Source: a virus (Duplodnaviria; Heunggongvirae; Uroviricota; Caudoviricetes). From it: a stretch of DNA of 64,000 bases. The DNA lies in IMG/VR virus record IMGVR_UViG_2974574029_000001, positions 31,424 to 95,423 of that record, one strand, 5' to 3'. The notes under the pieces were generated by a model. The model was not told the DNA's origin. It searched no databases and saw only the letters and a program-made list of their open reading frames with translations. Positions 37,102-52,157 of the stretch are shown here, in pieces. How positions within the stretch are numbered: position 1 is the stretch's first letter; each line of letters starts with the position of its first letter. Made by a program: the position numbers and the translations under genes.

Positions 37102-37877
37102 TATTTCTCCTTGCTTTGCAATGGTGTCTTACCTTCAAGGTGATTCTCAACCATCTTGATAAGGCCGGGATTATTAAAGGCATCAACAGCTCCGGTACGA
37201 TATACAAGAACACCCGCATTCTCATATATCATTTGTTCATCATACTTAATAGCAGGATTGACAACAACAACTTTAGTCCCCCGCACAACCGCAGGGAACA
37301 ACTCCCAGTTGAAGTTGATTACCGTGTTTGAGCAACCAACAACAATTACAAGATCTTGGTTTGTCAAGGACTCTAAGGTATCATACATAGGTCCATACGC
37401 CGGGGCATTTTCACCAAAGAAAATTACGTTTGGTTTACACCAATCATAATCATCAGGATCAATTTGGTCGTAACCAATATCGACAACCTTTATCTTCTTG
37501 GTGAAAGCATCTTTAATAAGGATCTCTTTCAGATAACCATGTATGTAAAGAGTATCTTCTTTATGGACACCAGCACGTTCCAGAAGGTCATCAACGTTAG
37601 TCGTCATGTTAACAACCTGCCCAGGATAACGTTTGTACCACTCAGCCACGCGAAGATGCGCCGCATTCGGATGTACCGTTGGTAACTCTGCACGACGCTT
37701 GTTATAAAACATGTGCGTTTTATGGTAGAAGTTACCACGGAAGGCGTGTATGTTACAAACCTCCTCAAGGTCGTATTCATCCCACAGAGCTTTACCGGAG
37801 TCAGTATCTGTACGGAATGTACGGACACCACTCTCGGCAGAGAAACCAGCGCCACTAATAACAATTAAACGCCTCAA
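37101..37877 (-). CDS. Sir2-family (sirtuin) NAD-dependent protein deacylase-like
   Basis: ISGAGFSAESGVRTFR (GAGISxxSGIxxFR), HPNAAHLRVAEW, NVDDLLERAGV...IHG. Confidence 0.6.
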   Translation of the reverse strand: MRRLIVISGAGFSAESGVRTFRTDTDSGKALWDEYDLEEVCNIHAFRGNFYHKTHMFYNKRRAELPTVHPNAAHLRVAEWYKRYPGQVVNMTTNVDDLLERAGVHKEDTLYIHGYLKEILIKDAFTKKIKVVDIGYDQIDPDDYDWCKPNVIFFGENAPAYGPMYDTLESLTNQDLVIVVGCSNTVINFNWELFPAVVRGTKVVVVNPAIKYDEQMIYENAGVLVYRTGAVDAFNNPGLIKMVENHLEGKTPLQSKEK

Positions 37878-37887
37878 TTATTTCCTC

Positions 37888-38292
37888 CTACTGTAATTTC
37901 AATGAGTTACGCAGACGACGCTCTTGAGCATCACGGGTTTCCTGCGGAACGCTGTGGACAGAATCATTGCCATGTCTGTTTTCAATGACCAAACTGAAAA
38001 CAGAATAACCAAACTCCTCAGCCATATCGATATAAGGTTGGATCTCCTTCAGGCTCGTATTTGTGTTAGAAACAATGATCCTATCAAAACCATAAGACAT
38101 TGCACCCCTGGCCTTTTCTTTGCACCATGCATGGGCTGCTGCCTGGTTTTCAGCTTTCCAGTTGTAGTCACCATTCTGGTAATGGTACGAGTCTGCCTCA
38201 CACACAGGCCACAACGAGTTTTCAGAAAGCGCATCTGCTACAGTTGACTTTCCTGCACCGGATACTCCACGAAGAATGTATAACTCTTTCAT
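37888..38292 (-). CDS. P-loop kinase, polynucleotide kinase (Pnk)-like
   Basis: MKELYILRGVSGAGKSTVADAL resembles the T4 Pnk kinase N-terminus. Confidence 0.4.
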   Translation of the reverse strand: MKELYILRGVSGAGKSTVADALSENSLWPVCEADSYHYQNGDYNWKAENQAAAHAWCKEKARGAMSYGFDRIIVSNTNTSLKEIQPYIDMAEEFGYSVFSLVIENRHGNDSVHSVPQETRDAQERRLRNSLKLQ

Positions 38293-38301
38293 TGCCTCTC
38301 C

Positions 38302-38646
38302 TCAGTAATTGTTTCTCAAGATCGTGATACGATACTTTAAGAAGCTCTCTTTTGCAAGCATGAACTTTTGTGCAGCAGAAGGATTAGACGTGTGGACATA
38401 AAGTTTAGCATCATGCACAGGAAGTTTCCCATACACAAGCTTCTCCTCCAAGGCCAACAAACAGTCATAACCTTCCTTTTCTGAATCTTCGCCCAAGTCA
38501 TTATCGAAATGCCACTCTGTGACATAACGATAGAACTTTGACCGATTATCAAGAAAGTCCATAAATTTCTGAGAGGTCTTGAACCACAACGCATCAGGAT
38601 ACCCGTAGTCTTTTGGATCTCTCAGATCATCAAGCCAGATGATCAC
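38302..38646 (-). CDS. hypothetical protein
   Basis: 114-aa ORF. Confidence 0.3.
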   Translation of the reverse strand: MIIWLDDLRDPKDYGYPDALWFKTSQKFMDFLDNRSKFYRYVTEWHFDNDLGEDSEKEGYDCLLALEEKLVYGKLPVHDAKLYVHTSNPSAAQKFMLAKESFLKYRITILRNNY

Positions 38647-39605
38647 TTTGTCACCCCAACATAAAAACGGCTACCACGGTCAAACATGTCTTCGATTGTA
38701 AAGTAATCTTCGACCACCTGACGGCGTTTTTGAGAATCCATCGCAGCCCACGTATCTTTAGAGTAATACTCACGGATATGATCCAGCAACTCATAATACT
38801 CTTCGTCAATACGCTGCTTGGCGTTCTGAGGGTTATCCCAGATCATGTCCCACTTGTTCTGGCTACCACGCATCAGGAACTTCTTCGCCAGGTAATGTGG
38901 AGACTTGATTTTCAGCAATAACTCATTGGTATCAACATCACGAACAACAAACCCTTCATGATTAACCGACTGAGAGGCCTTAACAACATCGCTGAATAGC
39001 ATATTATCCCAGCCAGCACGTTTCCAGCCATATCGATCTGCAACCTTATCAAGGTCCCATTCTGGGAGCATACCACCGCTCAAGTGGACACGGCAACCGA
39101 TCAGGTAAGCCCCAGCTTCTTCCGCAACAATGTGTGGGTCACTATCGTCACAGATTTCGAAGATAAGTGTGCATGGGCCAGCATTTTTCACGAAATAGTC
39201 CAGCATCCCGTCATGCATTGCTGAGGTGATCTTGTCTTTTGCCATTTGTGCAAATTCAGAGTCGAGTGTTCCGGTGGTAGATACAATCACCCCACCTTTG
39301 TAAACACTCATCGCTGCCATAAAGCCATTAACTTTACGAGGTACGCACACCAACTGGTCCTGTGGGACATCAGTTCCATTCTCGAAGTGGTTGAAAATCT
39401 TCGTGAAAGGCCAGATAACAACGTTGTCTTCTGCATCAACAACCATACCACGGCACTCTAACAGACGTGCGTCAGTATGCCACAGGTTATCCCAGAACAC
39501 ATTGTTCTTATACTTAAGCACAGACAGGCCCGCGAACGGGCCTTCGGTGTAAGTCTTTTTGGTTACCAGATTTTTAGCGACCAGATCGTCTACGTTGAAT
39601 TTCAT
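38643..39605 (-). CDS. RNA ligase-like nucleotidyltransferase (Rnl family)
   Basis: Motif I PRKVNGFMA (KxNG), motif IV HEGFVVRD (EGxV), motif V LKIKSPHY (KxK) in correct order and spacing. The separate DNA ligase at 35800 suggests this one is an RNA ligase. Confidence 0.45.
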   Translation of the reverse strand: MKFNVDDLVAKNLVTKKTYTEGPFAGLSVLKYKNNVFWDNLWHTDARLLECRGMVVDAEDNVVIWPFTKIFNHFENGTDVPQDQLVCVPRKVNGFMAAMSVYKGGVIVSTTGTLDSEFAQMAKDKITSAMHDGMLDYFVKNAGPCTLIFEICDDSDPHIVAEEAGAYLIGCRVHLSGGMLPEWDLDKVADRYGWKRAGWDNMLFSDVVKASQSVNHEGFVVRDVDTNELLLKIKSPHYLAKKFLMRGSQNKWDMIWDNPQNAKQRIDEEYYELLDHIREYYSKDTWAAMDSQKRRQVVEDYFTIEDMFDRGSRFYVGVTK

Positions 39606-39813
39606 TTTCTCTCCTCAATCTGAGACTTTTAAGTATTTTTAGCAGTTCTTTTTGTGCCAATTTCATTTCTTGATAGTCATCATAAATGCTCAGATCAAGC
39701 ATGTCAACATAATCTTCAAGCTCTGAGATTAAAAACGCGACATTACCCAATTGATCAAGATCTTTTTTCATAGCCTTCCGCCTGGTAATAGGTTGTATTG
39801 TACGGAGTTTCAA
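39574..39813 (-). CDS. hypothetical protein
   Basis: 79-aa ORF. Confidence 0.25.
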   Translation of the reverse strand: MKLRTIQPITRRKAMKKDLDQLGNVAFLISELEDYVDMLDLSIYDDYQEMKLAQKELLKILKSLRLRRENEIQRRRSGR

Positions 39814-40111
39814 TGCTGAAACTGACCTGGCAGAGTTCCTGAGCTAAAAATTTAGCAAGTTCAACCGCCATTTCAAGGATTTCATGCTCAGGACGCTCAA
39901 AACGAGGATACTGTATAATACGTACCGTCATACCTCGTTCAGAGCCGCCAGTATAGATGTAATCACACCAGGCTAGTTGCACACAAGCACCACGCATAGT
40001 CCATTGACGGAGCAATGGTCTTGCTGACTCCAGATCTCCAGCAATGTGGATCGTGGCATAAAAAGACTTAGATGTTTTCTTAGGTAAGAAATTACGTACT
40101 TTGTTGTGCAT
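39755..40111 (-). CDS. hypothetical protein
   Basis: 118-aa ORF. Confidence 0.3.
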   Translation of the reverse strand: MHNKVRNFLPKKTSKSFYATIHIAGDLESARPLLRQWTMRGACVQLAWCDYIYTGGSERGMTVRIIQYPRFERPEHEILEMAVELAKFLAQELCQVSFSIETPYNTTYYQAEGYEKRS

Positions 40112-40649
40112 GTATTTTCCTTACAATGTTGTGTATGAGGCTCTTGGAAACACCGTATTTTTTAGCCAAGGAAACCACCCCATGTGTTGATGATCCATAA
40201 ATATACTCATCCCTTATCTTTTCCTCAACCTCTGTAGAAAAAATAGTTTCTTTAGGCGTTGTTAATCCAAGTGAAAAGGCGTGTTCACTATTCTCTTTGG
40301 CAGTTACCCATTCGAGGTTATCCTTATGATTATTAAGCTTGTCACCGTCCTTATGATTAACAAAAGGAAGATTATCCGGATTTTCATGGAAGCAGATAGC
40401 AACACAGCGATGTACAAAATGTTTCGCAATGGTTCCATTCCTGCTCAAGAGCACACGTCTGTAACCATGAATGGAGGTCTCCCCGATTACTTCACATCCT
40501 TTCTTTATGTATCTAAAGTTTCCACTTTTAGAATAAATTGGTCGGGAATGTGAAAATAATCTACCATCATCTGTTACATAGTACAATCCTTCATATCCAG
40601 GTATGTCCTTAGTGACCATCTGCACTGTACTGCTCTTTTTCATCTGCAT
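40092..40649 (-). CDS. HNH homing endonuclease (NUMOD4 + HNH_3)
   Basis: YEGLYYVTDDGRLFS plus VNHKDGDKLNNHKDNLEWVTAKEN. Confidence 0.6.
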   Translation of the reverse strand: MQMKKSSTVQMVTKDIPGYEGLYYVTDDGRLFSHSRPIYSKSGNFRYIKKGCEVIGETSIHGYRRVLLSRNGTIAKHFVHRCVAICFHENPDNLPFVNHKDGDKLNNHKDNLEWVTAKENSEHAFSLGLTTPKETIFSTEVEEKIRDEYIYGSSTHGVVSLAKKYGVSKSLIHNIVRKIHAQQST

Positions 40650-41190
40650 ATTTATATGCCTCTTCTAGGGTCAAAGGTCTGCCCCATACATCCCAACCCA
40701 CATCCAAAATCTTCCCTTTTCCACCAACCAAACTTCCGTGGCAATGTCCATGAAGCATAACAGAACCATGATGGCACTTATCCCAAACCATCATCGGATA
40801 GTGACTCATAATAACAGTTCTCTTACCAGGAAGATCTACTCTTTTGTAATCAACAACTTCGTGACCGAATTCACGGAAGATACGTTTCGTATCTCGGTTG
40901 TCATGGTTTCCACCCACAAGGATGATCTTTCCGTTGATCTTTTCCAGGATGTCACGAACGCGAGGCTCCATATAACGACCATAAGCAATCACGAAGTCAC
41001 CAAGGTGTGCCACGACATCATCTGGTTTTACGTGCTTATTCCAGATTTCAATCATGCCTGCATTCATGGCATACAGACTTTCACGGTCTTCTTTTGGACC
41101 GTACAGGTCCTTGCGGAATTTATCACACGAGGGGAAACCAAGGATATTGGTGTGCCACCAGTGGGTATCTGACGTAACGTGGTCGATCAT
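40609..41190 (-). CDS. calcineurin-like metallophosphoesterase (Ser/Thr phosphatase-like)
   Basis: HLGDFV and GGNHDN metal-binding motifs, with a DxH at the N-terminus. Confidence 0.55.
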   Translation of the reverse strand: MIDHVTSDTHWWHTNILGFPSCDKFRKDLYGPKEDRESLYAMNAGMIEIWNKHVKPDDVVAHLGDFVIAYGRYMEPRVRDILEKINGKIILVGGNHDNRDTKRIFREFGHEVVDYKRVDLPGKRTVIMSHYPMMVWDKCHHGSVMLHGHCHGSLVGGKGKILDVGWDVWGRPLTLEEAYKYADEKEQYSADGH

Positions 41191-41996: not shown

Positions 41997-42089
41997 CTCT
42001 AAGAGCCTCTGGGAGGCCCTGTATTTAATTTAATATGGGTTGGTAACCCAAGTGTACCACCATACACTTAAAACGCCTTAGAATGCGTT

Positions 42090-42431
42090 CTATAGAGTTA
42101 TACGGATTTCGCTTAGATCCACTACAACATTGTTGTTCTCGATGTGTTCCACAGTCATGTCTTTTGCATATATTACACACACATTACGTCGAGCTAGTCT
42201 CGACTTTATTGAAGCATAGAAGTTATCGAAGACCTTGTCAACAGGTATACCATCTGGTAATACCACGCACACATTGTGGTCTTCACCACATTCATGATAC
42301 ACTTCACGTATCATCATCAACTTGGTATTCTCTTCATCGGTCTGCTCCGGTTTCCGTCGTGGCTTACCACAGACCATTTCACCGATAACTTTTGTTTCTT
42401 TACTTGAAAACATAACAATCTCCTTTAACAT
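42090..42431 (-). CDS. hypothetical protein (last minus-strand gene before the strand switch)
   Basis: 113-aa ORF. Confidence 0.3.
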   Translation of the reverse strand: MLKEIVMFSSKETKVIGEMVCGKPRRKPEQTDEENTKLMMIREVYHECGEDHNVCVVLPDGIPVDKVFDNFYASIKSRLARRNVCVIYAKDMTVEHIENNNVVVDLSEIRITL

Positions 42432-42636
42432 TACCTAGATTCTACACGTTAAAAATTTCATGTCAACACTTGACATCATCTTTTCTTCATACGATAATCC
42501 AACTTATCGAGTCACCGACTCTATGATATAGAGTATTTATACTCTGTAGTAAAAGATCTTGTTTTAGGTCTTATGTTTTATTGTTTTTAAAGATCATAAG
42601 TTAGTTTAAATGATAAGTTAGTATTGTATTCCTTTT

Positions 42637-42733
42637 CGGGAATAATTAGATATTCCTAATCGGGAATAATTAGAGTTGACAGTATTGGTTTAGTAGTGTA
42701 GCTTCTAGTTATACCTGCTTGGGAATAATTAGG
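42637..42733. repeat. three direct copies of GGGAATAATTAG(A/G), one forming a palindrome with TATTCC
   Basis: Copies at 42637, 42661 and 42719. An inverted partial copy TATTCCTAAT lies at 42651. Located in an AT-rich intergenic region between divergent gene blocks. Confidence 0.6.
42676..42704 (+). promoter_or_regulatory. candidate sigma70 promoter for the plus-strand block
   Basis: TTGACA (42676-81) - 17 nt - TAGCTT; weak -10 box. Confidence 0.25.
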
Positions 42734-42742
42734 AGATTGGTG

Positions 42743-43111
42743 GTGGAGATAAAGATTGGCGAGCACTCGGTTAAAGTACGTGACGGTTCATATGTCACAA
42801 TCCCTACCATGTGGCTTTTCGATGAAAACCTCTCCCCTCAAGATTTGCAAAGGCTCGTAAAGTTGTGGTGGAGGTATGATTACTTCAGAAACCTTAACCC
42901 AGAGGGTGGTGAAGAAGTCTTCTTTCCCTCGCAGAAGTCTTTGTGTCATCTGTTTGGGTTGAGTGAAAAATCACAACCGAAGGTTTCTGAGTTCCTCTCT
43001 AAAATGGAGAAGCTCGGTTACATTCGAAGAGTACGTTCTGGATTTAAGGATTCCTCTGGGAATGCGAAGCCAAGACATTACATCATTGTTAACAGAGGTA
43101 CAAATGCTTGA
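42743..43111 (+). CDS. winged-helix DNA-binding protein (first of tandem pair)
   Basis: LFGLSEKSQPKVSEFLSKMEKLGYIRRVRSG is wHTH-like. Start taken at GTG after AGGAGA rather than the track TTG at 42719. Confidence 0.4.
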   Translation: MEIKIGEHSVKVRDGSYVTIPTMWLFDENLSPQDLQRLVKLWWRYDYFRNLNPEGGEEVFFPSQKSLCHLFGLSEKSQPKVSEFLSKMEKLGYIRRVRSGFKDSSGNAKPRHYIIVNRGTNA

Positions 43112-43667
43112 AATTCTAAAATCAAAAGAACTAGGGGCATCTGAAAAGGTTATCGTCATGTTCATGGGTCTGAATGGTAATGGTGTATATACCTATCAAG
43201 ATTTTATGGACTTCACAGGGTTGAGTAGGGCAACTGTTGGCAGGTCTCTTTCAAAACTATATGATGATGGTTGGATCGATAAGAAAACTACCATCTCCCC
43301 GTCAGGTGCAGAAAGTATAGAGTACGTATTGCTACTGCAAAAGGCTTCTGTTGCTGAGAGACTGAACAGACCGTGCTTCGTATACGTGCAACGACTGACA
43401 GGCCCAGGCCTTACAGTAGGTAAGGTGGGAATCGCGTTTAATGTTTTTGAGAGAATGCGCCAACAAGGGAAAAGTAGTCTTTTCCGTCATGAGCTTGTTT
43501 ACTCAAGGTTGTTTGAGTGCTATGCTGATGCTTCAAACGTTGAGAAACAAGTTCTACGAGAACTTCCACAATTTATTTGTGAAAAGGATTGGTTACCAGA
43601 TGGTTACACCGAAACAATACATGTAGATGATATATTACGCGCTATAAAAATTATTGAGGAGAAATGA
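43104..43667 (+). CDS. winged-helix DNA-binding protein (second of tandem pair)
   Basis: DFMDFTGLSRATVGRSLSKLYDDGWIDKK is MarR/wHTH-like. Start at MLEILK, overlapping the upstream stop by 8 nt; the track N-terminal extension from 42963 reads as out-of-frame noise. Confidence 0.4.
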   Translation: MLEILKSKELGASEKVIVMFMGLNGNGVYTYQDFMDFTGLSRATVGRSLSKLYDDGWIDKKTTISPSGAESIEYVLLLQKASVAERLNRPCFVYVQRLTGPGLTVGKVGIAFNVFERMRQQGKSSLFRHELVYSRLFECYADASNVEKQVLRELPQFICEKDWLPDGYTETIHVDDILRAIKIIEEK

Positions 43668-43668
43668 A

Positions 43669-44469
43669 ATGAGTTTAGAACTTCGTCTGAACAAACTGGT
43701 AGTTCCTGTCGATCACTTTACGTTCAAAGGTGGTGAAGAACAGGTTAGAATCGATATGGGGCATACTCCGAAAGGTGGTATTGGTTTCGTTGATATCACT
43801 GCTAAAATCAAGAATTCCACCGATGTCATGGCGTTAGCTATGTTGGTGGATGCATGTTCTCGTCTGGAAGGACTGCATAACCATGCTGAGTTTACCCTGC
43901 ATCTGCCATACATCCCGTATGCACGTCAGGACCGTGTGATGAATCCGGGTGAAGCGTTATCCATCAAAGTTTTCGCAAATATCGTCAACTCTCTTGGGTT
44001 TGACAAGGTCATTGTCGATGATCCGCACAGCGATGTCTCCGCTGCGTTGCTTAACAACGTTAAAATTCGTGGTCAGGATGCTCTTATTGCGGAATTCCAT
44101 GAAGGTCTTGCCGGAAAAGATGTTGTTATCGTTGCCCCTGACGCCGGAGCACGTAAAAAAGCTCAGAAAGTTTCCGATCGTCTCCGCCTCCCTCTGGTAG
44201 AAGCTGGAAAAGTGCGCGACCTGAAGACAAATGAAATTACCGGGACTGCTGTTTTCGGTGATGTTGAAGGCCGCGAGTGTGTTATTGTCGATGATATCTG
44301 CGACGGCGGTCGCACATTCATCGCCCTGGCACAAGCATTGAAGGCAAAAGGAGCAAAACGTGTTATTCTTTACGTAACTCACGGTATCTTTTCCTTCGGT
44401 AAAGAAGTTATCTACGAAGGCGGCGTTGATGAAATCTACGCGTACCACGACTGGACCGAAAACTTTTAA
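43669..44469 (+). CDS. prs: ribose-phosphate pyrophosphokinase (PRPP synthetase)
   Basis: PRPP-binding loop VIVDDICDGGRTF, VIVAPDAGARKKAQ, HGIFS. Start at MSLELR after a GAGGAG RBS. Confidence 0.7.
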   Translation: MSLELRLNKLVVPVDHFTFKGGEEQVRIDMGHTPKGGIGFVDITAKIKNSTDVMALAMLVDACSRLEGLHNHAEFTLHLPYIPYARQDRVMNPGEALSIKVFANIVNSLGFDKVIVDDPHSDVSAALLNNVKIRGQDALIAEFHEGLAGKDVVIVAPDAGARKKAQKVSDRLRLPLVEAGKVRDLKTNEITGTAVFGDVEGRECVIVDDICDGGRTFIALAQALKAKGAKRVILYVTHGIFSFGKEVIYEGGVDEIYAYHDWTENF

Positions 44470-44530
44470 TTGACAAATGAATAAGTGGGCGTACAATCGC
44501 CCTATTAAACACACAAAGGAGAAACAAAAC

Positions 44531-46222
44531 ATGCTGCATAAAGAAAGCCCACTCGTATTCGCTGACTTTTACAAACCTTCACACATCTCCATGTATGACC
44601 GACGTTCTGAAATTGTTCAGGACAACATGACACCACGCAATGCAAAGCACTTCATTCACTTCGCTGATAACGACCAGCGTGTAATGATGGCTGGTCTGCA
44701 AGGTTTCATCAAATGGTTCCTGATCGACCTGTTCAACGAAAACTTTTTCAAAATGAAAAAGAAGGCGGCTATCGCACAGTACAAAGAAATTTGTGACCTG
44801 AGCATCGGTCCTGACATGGTTGAAACCTGGGGCTTTGAAAAGCTGCATGACCTTGGTTATCTGCCACTGGAAATCCGTTCGATTCCTGAAGGCACTCTGT
44901 CTCCGGTACAGGTTCCGCTGTTCACCATTCAGAACACGCACCCTGATTTTTACTGGTTGCCGAACTTCCTGGAAAGCGTGATCTCCGCAGAGACCTGGAA
45001 AACCATCACAACTGCAACTACCTTCTGGCAATATCGCAAGCTGTCTGAAAAATGGGCTGCGGAGACCTGTGATAACAACGCCCATGTTCCGTTCCAGAAC
45101 CACTGCTTCGCTTATCGCGGTGAATCTGGTACTCACGACGCAGCACAGAGCGAATTTGGTCAACTGATCAACTCAATGGGTACAGATACCATCCCTGCGA
45201 TTCTGTATGCGAACCGTTATTACAACATGAAAGGTAAGTTCGTTGCTGGTTCTATTCCTGCATCAGAACACAGCGTTGCAACCACGAATATCGGTTTTAT
45301 CGTTGGTCGCCTGAAAACGGAAAATCCTGATCTGTCTCTGGACGAATTGCGTTTCCTGGCTGAAGTTGAATTCCTGAAACGCTACATCACGGAAATTTTC
45401 CCGAAAGGTTTTGTTTCCTACGTAGCAGACAGCTATGACTTCTGGGCGATTATCACCCGTGCGGCACTGATTCTGAAAGAAGAGATCATGGCTCGTGACG
45501 GTCGTGTGGTGTTCCGTCCTGATTCTGGCATCCCTGAACACATCATTGCTGGGTATTATATCCTGCCTGGTGAATATAAAACCTGCTCAGACGCATTTGA
45601 TGAGCTTGAGCGATTTGAAGGTCCATATACTCCTGAAGTTGTGAATGTGCAGGGTACTTGGTTCACCATTGAATATAACGAGTTCTCAGATACAACGATT
45701 ACTCGTTCAGAACTTACAGACCATGAAGTCAAAGGTGCAATCCAGTGTCTGTGGGAAATCTTTGGTGGTGAAATTAACTCCAAAGGCTACAAAGTTCTGG
45801 ACACCCACGTTGGCCTGATCTACGGTGACTCTATCACCGTTGCTCGTGCAAAAGACATCTTTGAACGTCTGAAAGATCGTGGTTTTGCATCCAGTAACAT
45901 TGTGTTCGGTGTTGGTTCCTTTACCACTCAATACACAACCCGTGATTCACTTGGTATGGCTGTGAAAGCAACTGGCGCTGTGATTGATGGTCAGCAGATC
46001 ATGGTTGTCAAAGAACCGAAGACTGACCTCGGTAAGAAATCTGCAAAAGGTTTCCTGAAGGTTGTTCGTGATGAGAATGGCGAACTGAAACTGGTTGACA
46101 ATTGTCAGCTTGAAGAGGTACAGTCTGAAGATAATGAACTGCGTCGTGTGTTCTACAACGGAAAACTGATTGTCGATGAAGACCTGACAACAATTCGTGA
46201 ACGAGCTGCTGCTCAACTGTAA
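44531..46222 (+). CDS. nadV: nicotinamide phosphoribosyltransferase (NAMPT/NadV)
   Basis: 563 aa. Conserved NAMPT blocks: FADFYKPSH at the N-terminus, GSIPASEHSV and VRPDSG. Start at MLHKESP after a strong AAGGAGA RBS. Confidence 0.7.
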   Translation: MLHKESPLVFADFYKPSHISMYDRRSEIVQDNMTPRNAKHFIHFADNDQRVMMAGLQGFIKWFLIDLFNENFFKMKKKAAIAQYKEICDLSIGPDMVETWGFEKLHDLGYLPLEIRSIPEGTLSPVQVPLFTIQNTHPDFYWLPNFLESVISAETWKTITTATTFWQYRKLSEKWAAETCDNNAHVPFQNHCFAYRGESGTHDAAQSEFGQLINSMGTDTIPAILYANRYYNMKGKFVAGSIPASEHSVATTNIGFIVGRLKTENPDLSLDELRFLAEVEFLKRYITEIFPKGFVSYVADSYDFWAIITRAALILKEEIMARDGRVVFRPDSGIPEHIIAGYYILPGEYKTCSDAFDELERFEGPYTPEVVNVQGTWFTIEYNEFSDTTITRSELTDHEVKGAIQCLWEIFGGEINSKGYKVLDTHVGLIYGDSITVARAKDIFERLKDRGFASSNIVFGVGSFTTQYTTRDSLGMAVKATGAVIDGQQIMVVKEPKTDLGKKSAKGFLKVVRDENGELKLVDNCQLEEVQSEDNELRRVFYNGKLIVDEDLTTIRERAAAQL

Positions 46223-46230
46223 TTTTAACT

Positions 46231-46252
46231 AAGCCCCTTCGGGGGCTTTTCT
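46231..46252 (+). terminator. rho-independent terminator
   Basis: GCCCC-TTCG-GGGGC-TTTTCT immediately after the nadV stop. Confidence 0.6.
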
Positions 46253-46264
46253 GATAGGTACACT

Positions 46265-46552
46265 ATGGAAAATCCATGCAAGTGGCATGAAGTCCCGGTA
46301 CGTGATTGCCTGACATGTAATAATACACCAACAAATCAATATTATATTAAGGAGCCTAAAATGTTTGGACCAGTAATGATGGAATGCAAAGTTTGCAAGA
46401 AAGAAGTTGAAGCAGACCTAGAAGCTCATGGCCCCGGTGTTTGCATCATCTCTTTCGGTTGTGGTCACCAGATGAATGCGAGCAAGGATAAGACAATCTG
46501 GATAAATACCAATACCGGGAAAATCGATCTCGAAGAGGTAGAGGGTGCGTAA
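46265..46552 (+). CDS. Cys-rich zinc-finger-like protein
   Basis: CLTC...CKVCKK...CIISFGCGH. Confidence 0.35.
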   Translation: MENPCKWHEVPVRDCLTCNNTPTNQYYIKEPKMFGPVMMECKVCKKEVEADLEAHGPGVCIISFGCGHQMNASKDKTIWINTNTGKIDLEEVEGA

Positions 46553-46757
46553 TTTAGTATCAAAAAACGATTTTAACAGGGCATCTGTTCATGAAGACCA
46601 AAAGAAGTCTTGGGTTCCTGATATTGAGGAAAGTCTTGATGAATATTACGATGATGACTGCGAATGGGAGACCGATGATGAGTTCATAGAGCGTATCAGA
46701 GCACTTTCCATATCCGAATACCGTCGTGGTGTCAATGACTCAGGCATCATGGATTGA
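46545..46757 (+). CDS. small acidic protein
   Basis: 70-aa ORF. Confidence 0.3.
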   Translation: MRNLVSKNDFNRASVHEDQKKSWVPDIEESLDEYYDDDCEWETDDEFIERIRALSISEYRRGVNDSGIMD

Positions 46758-46831
46758 CAAAAAAGGTGTCCGCTGGTAAGATTAAGTTATCAAAATAACT
46801 TGACTCTTAACAACTTACACGGTAGGACACT

Positions 46832-47077
46832 ATGTTTAAACTAAAACTCGTTTATAAATCTGATAACGGAGAGTATATTGAACACGAATCGAATCATAGG
46901 GAACTGGATGAAGCCACTGATGAAGCGGATGAGATCGCTTTTTCTACAACTGGTTTTGGAATTGAAGCCTGGAAATACGTTGCCTCCTTCGGTGAGGAAG
47001 GTGGATTGTACTATTTCTACCCCAATGATGAAGACCTCACAATCAAATACGCTCTCCGAATCTTCCGAACAGTTTAA
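46832..47077 (+). CDS. hypothetical protein
   Basis: 81-aa ORF. Confidence 0.3.
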   Translation: MFKLKLVYKSDNGEYIEHESNHRELDEATDEADEIAFSTTGFGIEAWKYVASFGEEGGLYYFYPNDEDLTIKYALRIFRTV

Positions 47078-47141
47078 GAATCGCAAACAACGCCGTGCTG
47101 AAGCGGCAATCAATCGTTCAAAACGAAAAGGAGCAAAACGA

Positions 47142-47261
47142 TGAAAGATGAATTTGACGGCTTTATTGGTTACGGTGAAGGAATTCGTCAGACTGAAGAT
47201 GTAGATTTTTTCGTTGGTTTCGGAGAGGGGATTTCTTCTGATGAGCGACCAGATCTCTAAT
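47142..47261 (+). CDS. small ORF (39 aa), hand-called
   Basis: AAAGGAGCAAAACG before the ATG; MKDEFDGFIGYGEGIRQTEDVDFFVGFGEGISSDERPDL. Confidence 0.2.
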
Positions 47262-47441
47262 TCTAATCACTGCATTGTATTCTCTGAAAGGGACTGGCCC
47301 AGTGAAAGCCTGCGTGGGATGTACTATCACAGGTCTTGCATTAGCTGTGGTAAGGAATACATAGGCCCTAAAAGAGAAATTTTCTGTTTTATTTGCGAGA
47401 ATAGTAAAAAAGACGTTGACAATGAAACAGGCAATCTATAA
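47241..47441 (+). CDS. zinc-ribbon small protein
   Basis: Start at MSDQIS after GGAGAGGGG; HC...CISC...CFIC. Confidence 0.3.
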   Translation: MSDQISNSNHCIVFSERDWPSESLRGMYYHRSCISCGKEYIGPKREIFCFICENSKKDVDNETGNL

Positions 47442-47465
47442 TATCTACCACATCAACAGTACAAC

Positions 47466-47538
47466 CGTTCAGTAGCTTAGTTGGTAGAGCATGTTCTTCA
47501 TACGGATAAGGTCAGTGGTTCAAGTCCACTCTGAACGA
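47466..47538 (+). tRNA. tRNA-Met (anticodon CAT)
   Basis: Acceptor CGTTCAG/CTGAACG, T-arm AGTGG-TTCAAGT-CCACT, anticodon loop TTCATAC; no encoded CCA. Confidence 0.75.
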
Positions 47539-47541
47539 TAA

Positions 47542-47619
47542 GGCCCTCAAGCTCATAAGGTATGAGCAATCGACTCATAATCGAGAGGTAGGTAGGTTCG
47601 AATCCTCCGGGGGTCACCA
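47542..47619 (+). tRNA. tRNA with CAT anticodon (Ile2/fMet-type), atypical
   Basis: Acceptor GGCCCTC/GGGGGTC (2 G-U pairs), D-arm GCTC/GAGC, loop CTCATAA, TTCGAAT T-loop, encoded CCA. One mismatch each in the anticodon and T stems. Confidence 0.45.
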
Positions 47620-47712
47620 ATTAAAAAATGTTGACGAGGATAATTGATTGAGTTAATATCCTCATGAACATAAACGGGAGAAATTCCCAAATAAAATGCA
47701 AAGGAGAAAATT

Positions 47713-48024
47713 ATGACTAAGAAAAATTCTACTAAGAAAGTATCTGCTATTGACGCTATCAAACAGCCTTTCCAGTTTGAGTCAAAGTCTACTCAGACGC
47801 ATTCTGCTCCGCATGATGTACGTCTGGGTGGTGTAGAGAAGACTGTTTCGGTATTTGATCGCCGTAAGGGTGAATACAAGTCAGAAACCCGCATTGAGGG
47901 TGGTCAGATTATCTCTGCATCTTACCGTGTTCGCACAGGTAAGACAAAACGTGAACGTGCTGGTAAAGTGAAGGAAGCTAAGGTTATTGAAACCGTAGCT
48001 CCAAATGGTAAGAAGAAAAAATAA
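47713..48024 (+). CDS. basic Lys-rich hypothetical protein inside the tRNA cluster
   Basis: 103 aa; AAGGAGAAAATT before the ATG. Confidence 0.4.
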   Translation: MTKKNSTKKVSAIDAIKQPFQFESKSTQTHSAPHDVRLGGVEKTVSVFDRRKGEYKSETRIEGGQIISASYRVRTGKTKRERAGKVKEAKVIETVAPNGKKKK

Positions 48025-48088
48025 TTCCTCCGGCATGGGGAACAATGACGATTCCGTGAAACGTCTTTAAAAACACGGATCTTATTTC

Positions 48089-48163
48089 GGGGTATTAACT
48101 CAGTGGTAGAGTAGCCGACTCTTAATCGGTTTGTCGAAGGTTCGAATCCTTCATGCCCCACCA
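48089..48163 (+). tRNA. tRNA-Lys (anticodon CTT)
   Basis: Clean cloverleaf: GGGGTAT/ATGCCCC, loop CTCTTAA, GAAGG-TTCGAAT-CCTTC, encoded CCA. Confidence 0.75.
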
Positions 48164-48165
48164 AA

Positions 48166-48270
48166 TTTGAAATGAGAGAGATACGGGTTCGACTCCCGTT
48201 CTTGCTGGCCCGGCTCGCGTAGTGGCACAGGGCGATAGCTTAAATGGACGAAAGTGCTCTCGTTTCAAAT
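48166..48270 (+). ncRNA. structured RNA element (13-14 bp closing stem around a T-arm-like hairpin)
   Basis: TTTGAAATGAGAG (48166-78) pairs with CTCTCGTTTCAAA (48257-69). Inside lie ACGGG-TTCGACT-CCCGT and a GGCCCGGC hairpin. Confidence 0.3.
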
Positions 48271-48291
48271 CGGAACCAAAAGGAGAACAAA

Positions 48292-48480
48292 ATGTTAGGG
48301 TCATTATTACGTATGGCTGGCGATATTGTTGGTACTGCTGTTGTTGTCACTGCAACTGTTGCAGAACCTTTTGTAGATGTAGCCGCAGAAGTTCTTGACG
48401 CCGCTGATGAGATGATTGTATCTCCTACCGCAGACGTCGTTGGTGAAGTTTGCGACTCCATTAAGGACGTTGTACGATGA
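48292..48480 (+). CDS. small hydrophobic/acidic protein
   Basis: Start at MLGSLLRMAGDIVG after AAAAGGAGAA. Confidence 0.35.
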   Translation: MLGSLLRMAGDIVGTAVVVTATVAEPFVDVAAEVLDAADEMIVSPTADVVGEVCDSIKDVVR

Positions 48481-48614
48481 GTGGCGGTGTTATCTTTATC
48501 ATCATGTCAGTGATCTCTTTCCTGCTTGTTCTTTGGTATTATTGGTCATGGTTTGAAAACAACCCTACCATCGAAGAAATAGTCAAAGATTCGCTTGACA
48601 AACACAATCTGTAA
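48477..48614 (+). CDS. small single-pass membrane protein (45 aa), hand-called
   Basis: ATGA overlap with upstream ORF; MSGGVIFIIMSVISFLLVLWYYWSWFENNPTIEEIVKDSLDKHNL. Confidence 0.3.
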   Translation: MSGGVIFIIMSVISFLLVLWYYWSWFENNPTIEEIVKDSLDKHNL

Positions 48615-48655
48615 GTGTAGTATTTAAAACCTAATTTAACGCAAAGGAGAACTTA

Positions 48656-49267
48656 ATGACTGATTCTAAAACTGTAATTTCCGTAACTGAACGTGCCACT
48701 AAAGCAGTAACCACTGCCGCTACTGGTCTGACTAAGGTAGTCGCTGAACTGCAATCTCTGGCAGAAGGGTCTGAACAGATCAGCCAGGAAATTCAGTTTA
48801 AGCAGCAGGAACTGGGACAAATTGAAGTTCAGTTCAACGAAAAACTGGCTGAAGAAAAATCCAAGCTGAAGATCAAAGTTCTGGAAAACGAAGATTCCGT
48901 TCTTAACTCTATCCTGAAAGCTCGCGGCCTTGTAGCTGTAGAACCGGGTGTTGTTGACGAACTTCGTGCAGAGCTGGCTACCTCTCAGCAGAACAATGCT
49001 GAAGCTGTAGAAAGCGCAGTTGCCGACGTTAAACGTAGTGCTGCAATTGAACTGAATGCGGTTAAGGCAAATCTGGAGTCTGCTCACAAGGTTGCAATTG
49101 CAGAACTTACTGCGAACAGCAAGGCTAAGGATGACCGTATTGCAATGCTGACTGAGCAGCTTGAAGCAGCGCGTGGCGATCTGAAGGCTGAACGCGAAAC
49201 CCGTCTGGAAATCGCAAAAGCGGACGCTAACCGCCAAGGCGTAGTTGTCAATACTGGCAAAAACTAA
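48656..49267 (+). CDS. coiled-coil protein (paralog A)
   Basis: 203 aa, Ala/Glu/Lys-rich heptads; GCAAAGGAGAA RBS context shared with the next gene. Confidence 0.45.
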   Translation: MTDSKTVISVTERATKAVTTAATGLTKVVAELQSLAEGSEQISQEIQFKQQELGQIEVQFNEKLAEEKSKLKIKVLENEDSVLNSILKARGLVAVEPGVVDELRAELATSQQNNAEAVESAVADVKRSAAIELNAVKANLESAHKVAIAELTANSKAKDDRIAMLTEQLEAARGDLKAERETRLEIAKADANRQGVVVNTGKN

Positions 49268-49275
49268 TACGTAGT

Positions 49276-49301
49276 GCCGACATGGATGTCGGCTAATTTT
49301 T
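49276..49301 (+). terminator. rho-independent terminator
   Basis: GCCGACA-TGGA-TGTCGGC followed by TAATTTTT. Confidence 0.55.
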
Positions 49302-49344
49302 GAAGTTCATTAAAATTTAAAATTTATTGCAAAGGAGAATATTT

Positions 49345-49992
49345 ATGACTACCAAGATTTCTGTGACTCGTGCTCTGGCAACTCTTTCTAAGATCGAAGA
49401 CAAGATCACGAAACGCATTAACACCCTGGAAACCATCCACGTTGCTCGCGGTGAAGGTGACCGTAAGGCAATCCCAGGTTCTCTGGCTTCTGTATCTGCT
49501 TTCGAAAGCGCAGCGGTTTCTGACTTCCAAGGTCTTGTTGACTTGATGAAAGTTCGTGATGAACTGAAAGCTGCGGTAGTACAGTCCAACGCAGTTACCA
49601 AGGTAACTGTCGGTGGTGTTGAGATGACTGTCGCTCAGGCTATCGAGCGCAAGCGTACAATCGTCTTTAATGAGCAACTGCTTGCTAAACTGATTGCTCA
49701 GTACAATCATGGCAAGATTCTCCTTAAGAAAGAGAATAGCGATTTTGAGATGAAGCTGGAACAGGCTCGCGCACCTTACATCAGTCGTGATAAGGCACCT
49801 GATCCAGAGCAGATCAAGACCGTTGAAGCTCCGGTCCGTCTGATGGGTACTCCGAGCATCGTTGATCCGCTTAATTTGGCAGTTCGCATTCGTTCTCTGG
49901 AAGCAGAGATTGAAGACTTTAAGTCTAACGTTGACTTTGTTCTTTCCGAGTCAAATGCACGGACTGAAGTAGAGATTGAAGGATCAATCTAA
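49345..49992 (+). CDS. coiled-coil protein (paralog B)
   Basis: Start at MTTKISV after GCAAAGGAGAATATTT; similar N-terminus and composition to 48656..49267. Confidence 0.45.
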   Translation: MTTKISVTRALATLSKIEDKITKRINTLETIHVARGEGDRKAIPGSLASVSAFESAAVSDFQGLVDLMKVRDELKAAVVQSNAVTKVTVGGVEMTVAQAIERKRTIVFNEQLLAKLIAQYNHGKILLKKENSDFEMKLEQARAPYISRDKAPDPEQIKTVEAPVRLMGTPSIVDPLNLAVRIRSLEAEIEDFKSNVDFVLSESNARTEVEIEGSI

Positions 49993-50382
49993 AATATCTT
50001 CAGGAATTCTTGATTAACCTCTTGTAATTCCTGCGGATAGCTGGTAAAGTTTTTAAATGCTGTTTTTGGTTAGCGAAGTCAGAAACATCTTGCCTCTACC
50101 GGGGCCGGAGGTTAAACTGCTCCGAACATAATCATATAGGATGATACTTAAACGTATGTTTCCGCAGACCATACATCTGCCGAAATTGTCGAATCGCGAA
50201 TTCGAAAGACTTCAAAATTCAACACTCAAAGATTATCGTTCAAAGCTTAATGTTTAAACTTGAAACTTCTAAACCGTAAAGTTAAAATTTCTTTGATTAC
50301 TTAAATCCTGGATATAGGATCTTAGCTCACAAGATATGGCTAACTGACTCCTCCAGGCTGTTAATCGGAAACAGTATGCTTC

Positions 50383-50457
50383 GCTCTCATCGTATAATGG
50401 CTATTACAGCGGCTTTGTAACCCGTTAATCTCTGTTCGATTCAGTGTGGGAGCACCA
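50383..50457 (+). tRNA. tRNA-like, possible tRNA-Thr (anticodon TGT), degenerate
   Basis: Acceptor GCTCTCA/TGGGAGC (one G-U), loop TTTGTAA, TTCGATT T-loop, CCA. One mismatch each in the D, anticodon and T stems. Abuts the HNH start codon. Confidence 0.3.
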
Positions 50458-50850
50458 ATGTTTATTTGTCTTTGTTGCAAAAAAGAATGTAAAATAAAGA
50501 AAAACACCTTATCTAAATATTGTTCTAATAAGTGCCAGAGAGATTACGAATACAAGGCTAGGGTCGAGTCTTGGCTGAGAGGGGAATATCTTGGATACAC
50601 GGGGAAGACAGCTCAAATAGCAAACTTCGTGAGAAGATACCTCTTAGAGACAAGAGGAGAGAAATGTGAGTCTTGTGGTTGGAGTAAACGACATCCGGTA
50701 GACGGGGCTATTCTTCTTGAGATTGACCATATTGATGGGGATGCTAGGAACTGTGAGCCTTCTAATCTTAAGATACTTTGTCCTAACTGCCACGCTATGA
50801 CACCTACATTTAGGGCAAGAAACAAGATATCCAGTAGGATAAGAAAATAA
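50458..50850 (+). CDS. HNH endonuclease
   Basis: CESCGWSKRHPVDGAILLEIDHIDGDARNCEPSNLKILCPNCHAM. ATG directly follows the CCA of the tRNA-like element. Confidence 0.55.
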   Translation: MFICLCCKKECKIKKNTLSKYCSNKCQRDYEYKARVESWLRGEYLGYTGKTAQIANFVRRYLLETRGEKCESCGWSKRHPVDGAILLEIDHIDGDARNCEPSNLKILCPNCHAMTPTFRARNKISSRIRK

Positions 50851-51146
50851 CCAATGCCGGGTAAGCGGTTTGTCAACTGCGGGGTCCCTCCAGACCTGAA
50901 AAATACGCCAAAAATAATAGTACGGCTAAATACATAGGTGGTTAGATTCCACCACCCGGCTCCAAATCTATTTTGCGAGGTTCTGAAACACTTAAAATCT
51001 CCTGCATCTAATGGGATGTGATCTCTGTGTCAGCTCTTATATCAAGTTGATGAAAGGGATGGCGTAGGCTCTGCTTCGCAAGCAGGGGCGCTTCGGGGAG
51101 ACAACGGCGGTTGTCATGACATCGGAACTTCACAAAATAGATTTCT

Positions 51147-51235
51147 GCGGGATTGGTGGTATTGGCAGTACACACGAGGCTTAAGACTTCGTAGGCCTCT
51201 TGGCCTTGAGGGTTCGAATCCCTCATCCCGCACCA
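51147..51235 (+). tRNA. tRNA-Leu (anticodon TAA)
   Basis: GCGGGAT/ATCCCGC, loop CTTAAGA, long variable arm AGGCC-TCTT-GGCCT, GAGGG-TTCGAAT-CCCTC, CCA. Confidence 0.75.
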
Positions 51236-51312
51236 GAATTATGGGGTACTTAACCGATAACACTCCCGGCTTCCAACGCGTGGGGGAGTGCGGAGAGTCC
51301 CCGCCAAATACA

Positions 51313-51388
<76 letters not shown>

Positions 51389-51393
51389 AAAAA

Positions 51394-51467
51394 GCGCGGT
51401 TGCTGGAGTGGTAACAGCTTTCTCTGCAAAAGAAATGTCAGGTGTTCGATTCGCCTACCGTGCTCCA
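51394..51467 (+). tRNA. tRNA-Cys (anticodon GCA)
   Basis: GCGCGGT/ACCGTGC, D-stem GCTG/CAGC, anticodon stem TTTCT/AGAAA, loop CTGCAAA, AGGTG-TTCGATT-CGCCT, CCA. Confidence 0.65.
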
Positions 51468-51552
51468 AGTTGTTGAATATTTTTATAAAAAATGATAAAA
51501 TAGCCCTTGACAGATAAATTTAAATCTGATAACATTAATAAGTGGGGTTATT

Positions 51553-51903
51553 ATGGCAGTAAAACAACAACTTACAAAGCGTCGTAGAGGAAAAGGTAGA
51601 CCTCTTAAAGAAGAGTCTAATGCTATTCAGCTTGAGAAGAATATCCTTGACCTTAAGACCAATATGATTGCTATGATTCCTGATGCTCATAAAGTGCTAA
51701 AAGACCTTATGACAAGTGCCACAACAAAGGACAATATCAGGGAAAATATTGCTCGATTTGTAATTGAGAAAGGTGAACAAATGCTTTCTGATTACTTCGA
51801 TGAAGAGAATGAAGAAGCTGAAACAACTAATGTTGATGATAAGAAATCTACTCCTATGAGTAAGCCATTCACAACAGATATTGTTCAGTTCAAACAAGGT
51901 TAA
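51553..51903 (+). CDS. hypothetical protein inside the tRNA cluster
   Basis: 116 aa with a basic N-terminus and acidic C-terminus. Confidence 0.35.
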   Translation: MAVKQQLTKRRRGKGRPLKEESNAIQLEKNILDLKTNMIAMIPDAHKVLKDLMTSATTKDNIRENIARFVIEKGEQMLSDYFDEENEEAETTNVDDKKSTPMSKPFTTDIVQFKQG

Positions 51904-51905
51904 AT

Positions 51906-51992
51906 GCGTCGTTAGACCGTAGGGGTAGCGGGACAGACTGTAAATCTGTTGCTCAAAAGGCTCGGGTAGTTCGACTCTATCACGGCGCACCA
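51906..51992 (+). tRNA. tRNA-Tyr (anticodon GTA)
   Basis: GCGTCGT/ACGGCGC, anticodon stem ACAGA/TCTGT, loop CTGTAAA, long variable arm, GGTAG-TTCGACT-CTATC, CCA; 87 nt. Confidence 0.7.
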
Positions 51993-51998
51993 ATTAAT

Positions 51999-52073
51999 GG
52001 GAGTATAGTTCAGCGGTAGAACGCTCGACCGATAATCGAGAGGTCTCTGGTTCGATCCCAGATACTCCCACCA
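51999..52073 (+). tRNA. tRNA-Ile (anticodon GAT)
   Basis: GGGAGTA/TACTCCC, GTTC-AGCGGTA-GAAC, loop CCGATAA, TCTGG-TTCGATC-CCAGA, CCA. Confidence 0.8.
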
Positions 52074-52082
52074 ATATAACTA

Positions 52083-52157
52083 GAGGCCGTAGTATAGCGG
52101 GAATTATGACTGGCTTCCACCCAGTAGATGAGAGTTCAATTCTCTCCGGTCTCTCCA
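52083..52157 (+). tRNA. tRNA-Gly (anticodon TCC)
   Basis: GAGGCCG/CGGTCTC, ACTGG-CTTCCAC-CCAGT, GAGAG-TTCAATT-CTCTC, CCA. Confidence 0.75.

Follow-up and report, generated by a model that had tools for sequence, protein, structure and literature searches.

What does a phage gain from an adjacent pair of genes labeled ribose-phosphate pyrophosphokinase (Prs) and nicotinamide phosphoribosyltransferase (Nampt, also written NAMPT or NadV) when no gene around them encodes the enzyme that would complete the pathway these names imply? The question is raised by a 64,000-nucleotide stretch of phage DNA, hereafter the window (positions 31,424 to 95,423 of IMG/VR virus record IMGVR_UViG_2974574029_000001), which is 100% identical to Raoultella phage Ro1 (MG250486.1 / NC_048682.1; Vequintavirinae, Mydovirus) over the 2.7-kb region compared; a window coordinate equals the Ro1 record coordinate minus 31423. 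The initial annotation proposed that Prs makes phosphoribosyl pyrophosphate (PRPP), that NadV condenses it with nicotinamide to nicotinamide mononucleotide (NMN), and that the pair thereby rebuilds nicotinamide adenine dinucleotide (NAD+) against NAD-depleting defenses. Our analysis retains the adjacent, co-oriented pair and, as most likely, the anti-defense role, but it assigns a different route. Judging from its sequence, the locus is very probably a two-gene operon of NAD+ reconstitution pathway 1 (NARP1), with adps, for an ADP-ribose pyrophosphokinase (Adps), as the first gene and namat, for a nicotinamide ADP-ribose transferase (Namat), as the second.

Osterman et al. began from the same Pfam-based expectation, that prs and nampt would together yield NMN, and refuted it for this type of operon (bioRxiv 10.1101/2024.02.11.579819). 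In the Bas63 and SPbetaL1 versions, Adps turns ADP-ribose (ADPR), together with ATP, into ADPR pyrophosphate (ADPR-PP), and Namat joins ADPR-PP with nicotinamide to yield NAD+. Purified SPbetaL1 “Prs” gave no product from the expected Prs-type substrate plus ATP and pyrophosphorylated ADPR; the “Nampt”, given both PRPP and ADPR-PP, used only ADPR-PP to make NAD+, and NARP1 functioned independently of host pncC or nadR (bioRxiv 10.1101/2024.02.11.579819). Further, ADPR-PP built up only in infected cells that contained a defense system, and deletion of NARP1 from phages Bas63 or Fado sensitized them to SIR2-HerA or DSR2 (bioRxiv 10.1101/2024.02.11.579819). By homology to the Bas63, SPbetaL1, and Vibrio phage ICP1 enzymes, we infer the same activities and the same anti-defense phenotype for the Ro1 pair. 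Specifically, defenses such as SIR2-HerA/Nezha, DSR1/2, type I Thoeris, SEFIR, and similar systems would split NAD+ into ADPR and nicotinamide; Adps would then use ATP as a donor, attaching its beta,gamma-pyrophosphate at position 1'' of ADPR's distal ribose, with ADPR-PP and AMP as products, and Namat would swap the pyrophosphate of ADPR-PP for nicotinamide, restoring NAD+ in one step. Such a route would require neither PRPP nor NMN nor an NMN adenylyltransferase (NMNAT), its net effect would be to reverse the SIR2-, TIR-, or SEFIR-type NADase reaction, and, because NAD+ would be made directly, it would explain why no NMNAT gene lies beside the pair.

The case for Ro1 is built on the presence, order, and spacing of the two genes, on family and clade membership, on diagnostic motifs, and on an earlier listing as NARP1. 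To take the last first, Supplementary Table 1 of Osterman et al. lists MG250486_00151 of Ro1 with “Namat within 10 genes: Yes”, and their Supplementary Table 2 lists MG250486_00152 as “Adps-associated” (bioRxiv 10.1101/2024.02.11.579819). The sequences in these tables are identical to both window open reading frames (ORFs), so the locus is an already catalogued instance of NARP1. The pathway was found in 859 phage genomes, or 4.3% of those examined, and the Adps clade is confined almost entirely to phages, with 97% of it linked to Namat (bioRxiv 10.1101/2024.02.11.579819).

ORF calling and family matches confirmed the two adjacent plus-strand ORFs reported by the initial annotation (Table 1). 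The adps ATG is preceded by a GAGGAG ribosome-binding site and begins one base past the TGA of the upstream gene (43665-43667), while the longest frame for namat (44477-46222) would encode 581 aa. The most likely namat start is nevertheless the ATG at 44531: a strong AAGGAG site precedes it by 8 nt, its product is the 563-aa protein, and GenBank annotates the identical start. The adps gene lies directly upstream of namat on the same strand with a 61-nt spacer, and a nucleotide-level search found the pair in 72 related phage records. The plus-strand homology is very strong, and minus-strand ORFs overlapping both genes (e.g., 43957-44532 and 44579-45163) were therefore set aside as spurious.

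For the first protein, database names point to Prs. Its Pfam domains are Pribosyltran_N, Pribosyltran, and Pribosyl_synth, it matches PHROG 619 (E=2e-95), and it passes the generic TIGR01251 model (166.6 bits; cutoff, 113). All of the narrower NCBIfam Prs models (equivalog or PRK-level subfamily) miss their cutoffs, however, with scores such as 136 versus 297 and 124 versus 296 bits, and its PDB sequence matches are canonical PRPS only, in a set searched without the ICP1 Adps entries. We built a neighbor-joining (NJ) tree of 24 sequences (269 columns, 200 bootstraps) that included the Ro1, Bas63, SPbetaL1, and ICP1 Adps, Escherichia coli Prs, and, drawn from Supplementary Table 1 of Osterman et al., 13 further Adps-like sequences (12 phage and 1 bacterial) and 5 actinobacterial Prs. 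The six Prs split from all of the Adps-like proteins in 200/200 bootstraps, and Ro1 fell on the Adps side together with the three characterized enzymes (Bas63, SPbetaL1, and ICP1), among Gram-negative phage Adps and beside Salmonella phage PVPSE1.

The diagnostic features that the ICP1 Adps structure paper names, including a PP loop for the ATP donor, point the same way (PMC13586617). The loop that the initial annotation had taken for PRPP binding was located in the first ORF (Table 1); it is identical in Ro1 and Bas63, it reads DDICDGAASF in ICP1 and DDLSSFGGTF in SPbetaL1, and its counterpart in canonical Prs is DDMIDTGGT(L/I). Ro1 thus lacks the DTGGT ribose-5-phosphate loop and reads CDGGRT. 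The catalytic hairpin Lys is present (K181, equivalent to K185 of ICP1 and K162 of SPbetaL1), as are R86, H120, D158, D208, and D209. Only 30 residues follow the THG motif, versus 67 to 78 in the six Prs, and at the sequence level the protein lacks the C-terminal alpha11-alpha12 filament/regulatory module of PRPS, the loss of which is a defining Adps signature (PMC13586617). Because of the 200/200 split, the Bas63-identical PP loop, the catalytic Lys, and the loss of the C-terminal module, we place the first protein on the Adps side. A canonical Prs was rejected, given that only TIGR01251 was passed, that the DTGGT loop is missing, and that the C-terminal module is absent. The ICP1 residues F18 and R87, which contact the ADPR adenine, are conserved in Ro1 as F19 and R86, but E. 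coli Prs has both of them too.

The second protein matches Pfam NAPRTase (7.6e-28), PHROG 448 (1.8e-196), and NF006629 (481 bits; cutoff, 405). The name of the last, “nicotinate PRTase”, is a label only: all 32 of the PDB sequence matches are NAMPT-type (NAMPT or Namat) and none is PncB, which led us to reject the NAPRTase/PncB enzyme of the Preiss-Handler pathway, the outcome that the initial annotation had set against its own reading. The best match among solved structures is SPbetaL1 Namat (9W5X/9W5W; 415.7 bits), compared with 187 bits for Xcc Nampt and about 161 for human NAMPT. Namat and Nampt structures are nearly superimposable, with a root-mean-square deviation of about 1 Å, and the Namat structure paper defines a “selectivity clamp” composed of a helix (SCH) and a variable loop (SCL) with an extra stacking residue, for which the third SCL residue is R, K, or Y and, where it is K or Y, the fourth residue stacks (PMC12774641). 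In the SCH of Ro1, the counterparts of F392 and Y396, which stack on the adenine in SPbetaL1 Namat, are F464 and Y468, such that motif positions 3 and 7 are conserved; in the putative SCL, the Ro1 residues fit the Lys-then-aromatic pattern, as K-H, which is also K-H in Vibrio phage Cody, K-W in Bas63, and K-Y in ICP1.

For comparison, we took five phage Nampts labeled as Nmnat-associated in the Osterman table (Matisse, LucasX, RSP15, phiN3, and BUCT608), in four of which the Nmnat gene lies immediately upstream of nampt. All five read GGG/GGA/GGQ-LLQ at the SCH position, where Xcc Nampt reads GGALLQKVDRD, and their SCL-equivalent loops are short; the clamp motif is absent from the five, from Xcc Nampt, and from PDB 9KE8. 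A literature search on 9KE8/9KEO, a close Nampt-like match without the clamp aromatics, found no paper. An NJ tree of 11 proteins split the Adps-linked from the Nmnat-linked enzymes in 200/200 bootstraps and placed Ro1 in the Adps-linked group. The catalytic core of Ro1 Namat (D12, Y14, F193, R196, D219, H247, R329, and D331) is intact, and these residues, together with A244, G432, and D433, align with ligand-contact residues of SPbetaL1; the core comparison took in the catalytic His and the Arg306 equivalent, and both aligned. Two segments of Ro1 Namat, aa 254-277 (45290-45361) and aa 342-401 (45554-45733), are insertions with respect to SPbetaL1 Namat, and Bas63 Namat carries insertions at both of these positions.

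The comparison with known systems is consistent with this assignment. Bas63 (Escherichia phage JohannRWettstein, genes 79-80) is set apart by phage family (Felixounavirus; Ro1 is a Mydovirus of the Vequintavirinae), its NARP1 was tested in vivo, and its enzymes are 42% (Adps) and 40% (Namat) identical to those of Ro1. Both phages have adps and then namat with a short gap, and they hold in common the PP loop, the SCL Lys-aromatic pattern, and the two Namat insertion positions; they differ in Adps length (266 aa in Ro1 and 293 aa in Bas63), at SCH position 5 (Thr and Tyr), and in the fourth SCL residue (His and Trp). Placement of adps immediately upstream of namat extends to SPbetaL1 and ICP1. 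The SPbetaL1 and ICP1 Adps resemble that of Ro1 in the catalytic Lys, the acceptor-site Arg/His/Asp, and the truncated C terminus, and ICP1 and Ro1 both have a DDICDG PP loop (PMC13586617), whereas the SPbetaL1 Adps, at just 33% identity, has a divergent PP loop. SPbetaL1 Namat (structures 9W5X and 9W5W; PMC12774641) has the same catalytic core and adenine-stacking F/Y as Ro1, but it lacks the two Ro1-type insertions, and its stacking SCL residue is Arg40.

Several points weigh against the NARP1 assignment. BLASTP scores of Ro1 Adps (156 bits to Bas63 Adps, 145 to ICP1 Adps, 97 to E. coli Prs, and 94 to SPbetaL1 Adps) place it no closer to SPbetaL1 Adps than to E. coli Prs, so raw similarity is not decisive, and the assignment rests on clade topology, motifs, and context. 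ICP1 F92, a further contact to the ADPR adenine, corresponds to M91 in Ro1, and Met is also found in Bas63 and in Aeromonas phage 65. In Namat, SCH position 5, which is usually aromatic and makes no contact, is Thr in Ro1, and His takes the place of Trp, Tyr, or Arg as the predicted stacking residue of the SCL. Both trees (24 and 11 sequences) are small and were built by NJ, not by maximum likelihood, and a literature search for studies on the Ro1 proteins found no paper. Finally, Namats keep a PRPP-dependent Nampt activity in vitro, by analogy with which some NMN formation by Ro1 Namat is possible.

This last point bears on the original proposal, in which gp151 would be a true PRPP synthetase, gp152 would be a true Nampt/NadV, and NMN would be finished by host NadD/NadR or by a phage NadR-like enzyme, much as in NARP2. 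In its favor are the Pfam, NCBIfam, and PHROG names, the NMN that Namat still forms from PRPP in vitro, and the NadR-like NMNAT/ribosylnicotinamide kinase (RNK) that mydoviruses encode, which is intact at 362 aa in Klebsiella phage KNP2 and lies at 128.65-129.75 kb of the Ro1 record. Yet the proposal was refuted for the homologous operon, in which host pncC and nadR are dispensable, the SPbetaL1 “Prs” makes nothing from the expected substrate, and Namat prefers ADPR-PP. Further, in Ro1, gp151 falls with the Adps and lacks both the Prs C-terminal module and the DTGGT loop, gp152 bears an adenine clamp that is absent from the Nmnat-linked Nampts, and the NadR-like gene is frameshifted past its TNGH motif in the deposited sequence. 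These results contradict the route from Prs to PRPP and from NadV to NMN, and we regard it as improbable, although it may, with low probability, operate as a side activity. NARP1 needs no last step of the kind that the initial annotation assigned to a host enzyme or to a gene elsewhere; the second of these suggestions is correct to the letter, in that a NadR-like gene does exist elsewhere in the genome, albeit frameshifted in the deposited sequence. The initial annotation was right that the window has no NMNAT; we found neither a GxFxP(H/T)xGH motif nor a tblastn match with a NadR-like query. Motif scans and tblastn likewise found no PnuC or Macro gene in the window, and Pfam searches of the neighboring ORFs returned nothing relevant. 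A “nucleotide pyrophosphohydrolase” at 33482-34147 was considered as a Nudix protein and found to be MazG/PRA-PH-like.

The known relatives of NARP1 can be set apart in the same manner. NARP2 (a KVP40-type Nampt with a NadM/Nudix Nmnat) and canonical Prs/Nampt salvage resemble NARP1 in their homologous folds, their goal of NAD+, and their nicotinamide substrate. In NARP2 Nampts, however, GGG-LLQ replaces the aromatic clamp and the SCL-equivalent loop is short, and these proteins adjoin an Nmnat gene, immediately upstream, where Ro1 has adps. With the clamp motif present, a 200/200 separation from the Nmnat-linked Nampts, and no Nmnat in the window, NARP2 was rejected for the Ro1 pair. NARP1-AP, an Adps-Adpp-Namat arrangement in which Adpp is a Macro-domain ADPR-1''-phosphate phosphatase (bioRxiv 10.64898/2026.01.28.702374), has the same Adps and Namat core as Ro1. 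There, Adpp lies within two genes of the pair, whereas in Ro1 about 69 kb separate the operon from the Macro gene, which is outside the window; no Macro domain was detected in the two upstream and three downstream neighbors of the pair, and tblastn of Adpp against the window gave no match. NARP1-AP was thus also rejected for the Ro1 operon; an unlinked homologue lies at record 5578-6012.

Two further explanations seem scarcely probable. A diverged NARP1-like pair acting on, for example, another ADPR derivative could be read from the differences between Ro1 and SPbetaL1 Namat (T466 for Y394, K39-H40 for R40, and the two insertions), but such a variant is very unlikely because these odd features are shared with functional homologues. 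Specifically, the insertion positions are shared with Bas63 Namat, an enzyme functional as NARP1 in vivo, and the SCL K-H also occurs in Cody Namat, whose three-gene operon layout matches the functional operon of phage Gary (Cody and Gary are 98% identical in Adpp, a comparison of Adpp and not of the Namats), while the adenine-stacking positions 3 and 7 are kept. Equally hard to credit is a housekeeping role, in which the pair would raise PRPP and pyridine nucleotides for phage synthesis and for NAD-dependent enzymes such as Sir2 with no specific anti-defense function: the genome is rich in nucleotide-metabolism genes (ribonucleotide reductase, thymidylate synthase, MazG-like proteins, and ligases) and encodes an NAD-consuming CobB-like sirtuin, but the near-exclusive phage carriage and Namat linkage of the Adps clade, the specific sensitization of Bas63 or Fado to SIR2-HerA or DSR2 upon NARP1 deletion, the appearance of ADPR-PP only when a defense system is present, and the ATP-dependent, not NAD-dependent, nature of the DNA ligase beside Sir2 all argue against it.

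Beyond the NARP1 operon, Ro1 encodes other proteins of NAD+ and ADPR metabolism. A PnuC-like transporter and the NadR-like NMNAT/RNK, which are NARP3 components (PMC13464706), lie outside the window on the minus strand (record 126781-129750), with four small genes between them, including those for DUF4326 and “phage tudor” proteins. Relative to the intact KNP2 gene, the Ro1 NadR-like gene has a 1-nt deletion just past GKFAPLTNGH, which is either a sequencing error or a mark of a pseudogene. The unlinked Macro-domain “phosphatase” (minus strand, 144 aa, PHROG 335) is 40% identical (E=4e-33) to Adpp, the middle gene of the Vibrio phage Cody operon, and Cody Adpp is in turn the near-identical relative of the characterized ADPR-1''-phosphate phosphatase of Gary. 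The association of this Macro protein with NARP1 is not specific, because the 2709 phage records in which its family occurs far outnumber those with NARP1. Within the window, the initial annotation had proposed that a Sir2-like protein and a NADAR protein extend an NAD/ADP-ribose theme. Both proteins are confirmed; the former is CobB-like, with E. coli CobB 1S5P as its best structural relative, and lacks the zinc-binding cysteines. They lie 5.8 and 12.4 kb from the operon, respectively, on the opposite strand and in other gene clusters, so the link is thematic only.

One tentative idea, which we consider rather doubtful, is that Ro1-type mydoviruses run a multi-branch NAD+ rescue network and not NARP1 alone, with an Adpp-family Macro protein feeding it in trans, a PnuC/NadR-like branch resembling NARP3, and turnover by the sirtuin and the NADAR protein. 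Were this so, the unlinked Macro phosphatase would provide the NARP1-AP function and aRES-type defense resistance without operon linkage, the PnuC/NadR-like branch could also catch NMN from the residual Nampt activity of Namat, and the phage sirtuin and NADAR protein would add NAD+/ADPR turnover. Operon-based censuses would, in that event, undercount extended NAD+ pathways.

Table 1. Coordinates of the adps-namat operon, its motifs and flanking elements, and other NAD/ADP-ribose genes and their neighbors in the window. wHTH, winged helix-turn-helix.
Feature	Position	Strand	Description
adps	43669-44469	+	266 aa, PRPS-like; GenBank label ribose-phosphate pyrophosphokinase; Ro1 MG250486_00151
namat	44531-46222	+	563 aa, Nampt-like; GenBank label nicotinamide phosphoribosyltransferase; Ro1 MG250486_00152
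PP loop (ATP-donor site in Adps)	44290-44319	+	DDICDGGRTF, aa 208-217
SCL (selectivity-clamp loop)	44639-44653	+	N37-A38-K39-H40-F41
SCH (selectivity-clamp helix) motif	45914-45946	+	GSFTTQYTTRD, aa 462-472
Sigma-70-like promoter candidate	42470-42498	+	TTGACA-17-GATAAT, 11/12; heads rightward gene block with operon; consensus scan
Divergent leftward promoter candidate	42466-42439	-	Paired with 42470-42498 candidate; consensus scan
Sigma-70-like promoter candidate in adps-namat spacer	44470-44497	+	TTGACA-16-TACAAT, 11/12; pattern match only
Ro1_00149	42743-43111	+	wHTH protein, DnaD-like/“replication initiation”-like
Ro1_00150	43104-43667	+	wHTH plus GIY-YIG/MUG113-like C terminus; PHROG 25806
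Candidate intrinsic terminator	46231-46253	+	7-bp GC-rich stem, UUCG loop (46231-46248), then short U-rich tail
Sir2 family protein	37101-37877	-	PF02146, 80 bits
NADAR protein	30764-31318	-	PF08719, 119 bits; TIGR02464, 123.5 bits
ATP-dependent DNA ligase	35800-37101	-	Sir2 cluster
AAA_33 P-loop kinase	37888-38292	-	Sir2 cluster
cREC_REC cyclic-phosphate-processing domain protein	38302-38646	-	Sir2 cluster
T4 Rnl1-like RNA ligase	38643-39605	-	Sir2 cluster
HNH/NUMOD4 endonuclease	within 35800-41190	-	Sir2 cluster
Metallophosphoesterase	40609-41190	-	Sir2 cluster

The promoter candidates are consensus pattern matches only, and the total number of such sites is not above shuffled expectation. 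With this in mind, the NARP1 operon is probably transcribed from the candidate at 42470-42498, through the two wHTH genes upstream; we infer that the pair is transcribed early, starting in the divergent promoter region near 42.45 kb and along with these two genes. In addition, namat may have a transcript of its own, as the near-consensus sigma-70-like site in the adps-namat spacer suggests. Ro1_00149 and Ro1_00150 are probably cotranscribed with adps and are not core NARP1 parts, and Ro1_00150 and adps may be translationally coupled, since the stop codon of the former falls one base before the start of the latter. The C-terminal half of Ro1_00150 resembles the “endonuclease” PHROG 681, and the protein has a weak, subthreshold match (19.5 bits) to Pfam PF24409, “wHTH-PRTase associated” (wHTH-PRTase_assc), a family on whose origin a literature search found no paper. 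Downstream of namat, the initial annotation had reported a clean terminator. A hairpin is indeed present (46231-46248, -12.6 kcal/mol, followed by UUCUGAU), but with a short U-tract, a z-score of only -1.9, and no flag from the consensus scan, the terminator is plausible and not clean. A search for upstream riboswitches or structured RNAs (NAD+ or PRPP classes) found none; the only Rfam hit at E<=1 over 42000-47600 was one tRNA.

Other observations concern the surroundings of the operon. The divergent intergenic region just upstream of Ro1_00149 contains a 24-nt direct repeat, TATTCCTTTTCGGGAATAATTAGA, in three copies (42627-42650, 42651-42674, and 42710-42733), and a 13-nt repeat in two copies (42593-42622); the repeats at 42593-42733 could be iterons or operator sites. 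Just past the terminator hairpin, a small ORF (46265-46552; shorter in GenBank, at 46361-46552) is Cys-rich, with several CxxC-like pairs, and has no matches other than to PHROGs of unknown function. For the small downstream genes, aRad1-type inhibitors were considered and dropped; the source paper offers no positional rule. A large cluster of phage tRNA genes on the same strand (window 47466-55300; 21 tRNAs in RefSeq) begins about 1.2 kb past the operon. Elsewhere in the window, the Sir2 gene belongs to a leftward, minus-strand cluster (35800-41190) that resembles an RNA/DNA end-repair cassette in look, and the NADAR gene appears in GenBank as “GTP cyclohydrolase II”, where its start is shorter (30764-31270), and in RefSeq as a NADAR family protein.

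The NARP1 operon of Ro1 is, then, already known, a standard catalogued instance with an out-of-date database annotation: NARP1 was described in 2024 (bioRxiv 10.1101/2024.02.11.579819), and structures of both enzymes were published in 2026 (PMC12774641, PMC13586617). The practical value of the present analysis lies in correcting that annotation, as GenBank, RefSeq, Pfam, PHROG, and NCBIfam still say Prs and NAMPT, labels that steer readers to the wrong pathway, from PRPP to NMN to a missing NMNAT. Naming the proteins Adps and Namat predicts resistance to SIR2-, TIR-, and SEFIR-type NAD+ depletion in Ro1 and in approximately 70 related phages of Klebsiella, Salmonella, Cronobacter, and Enterobacter, and this predicted resistance would be relevant to the choice of therapeutic phages against Klebsiella and Raoultella.

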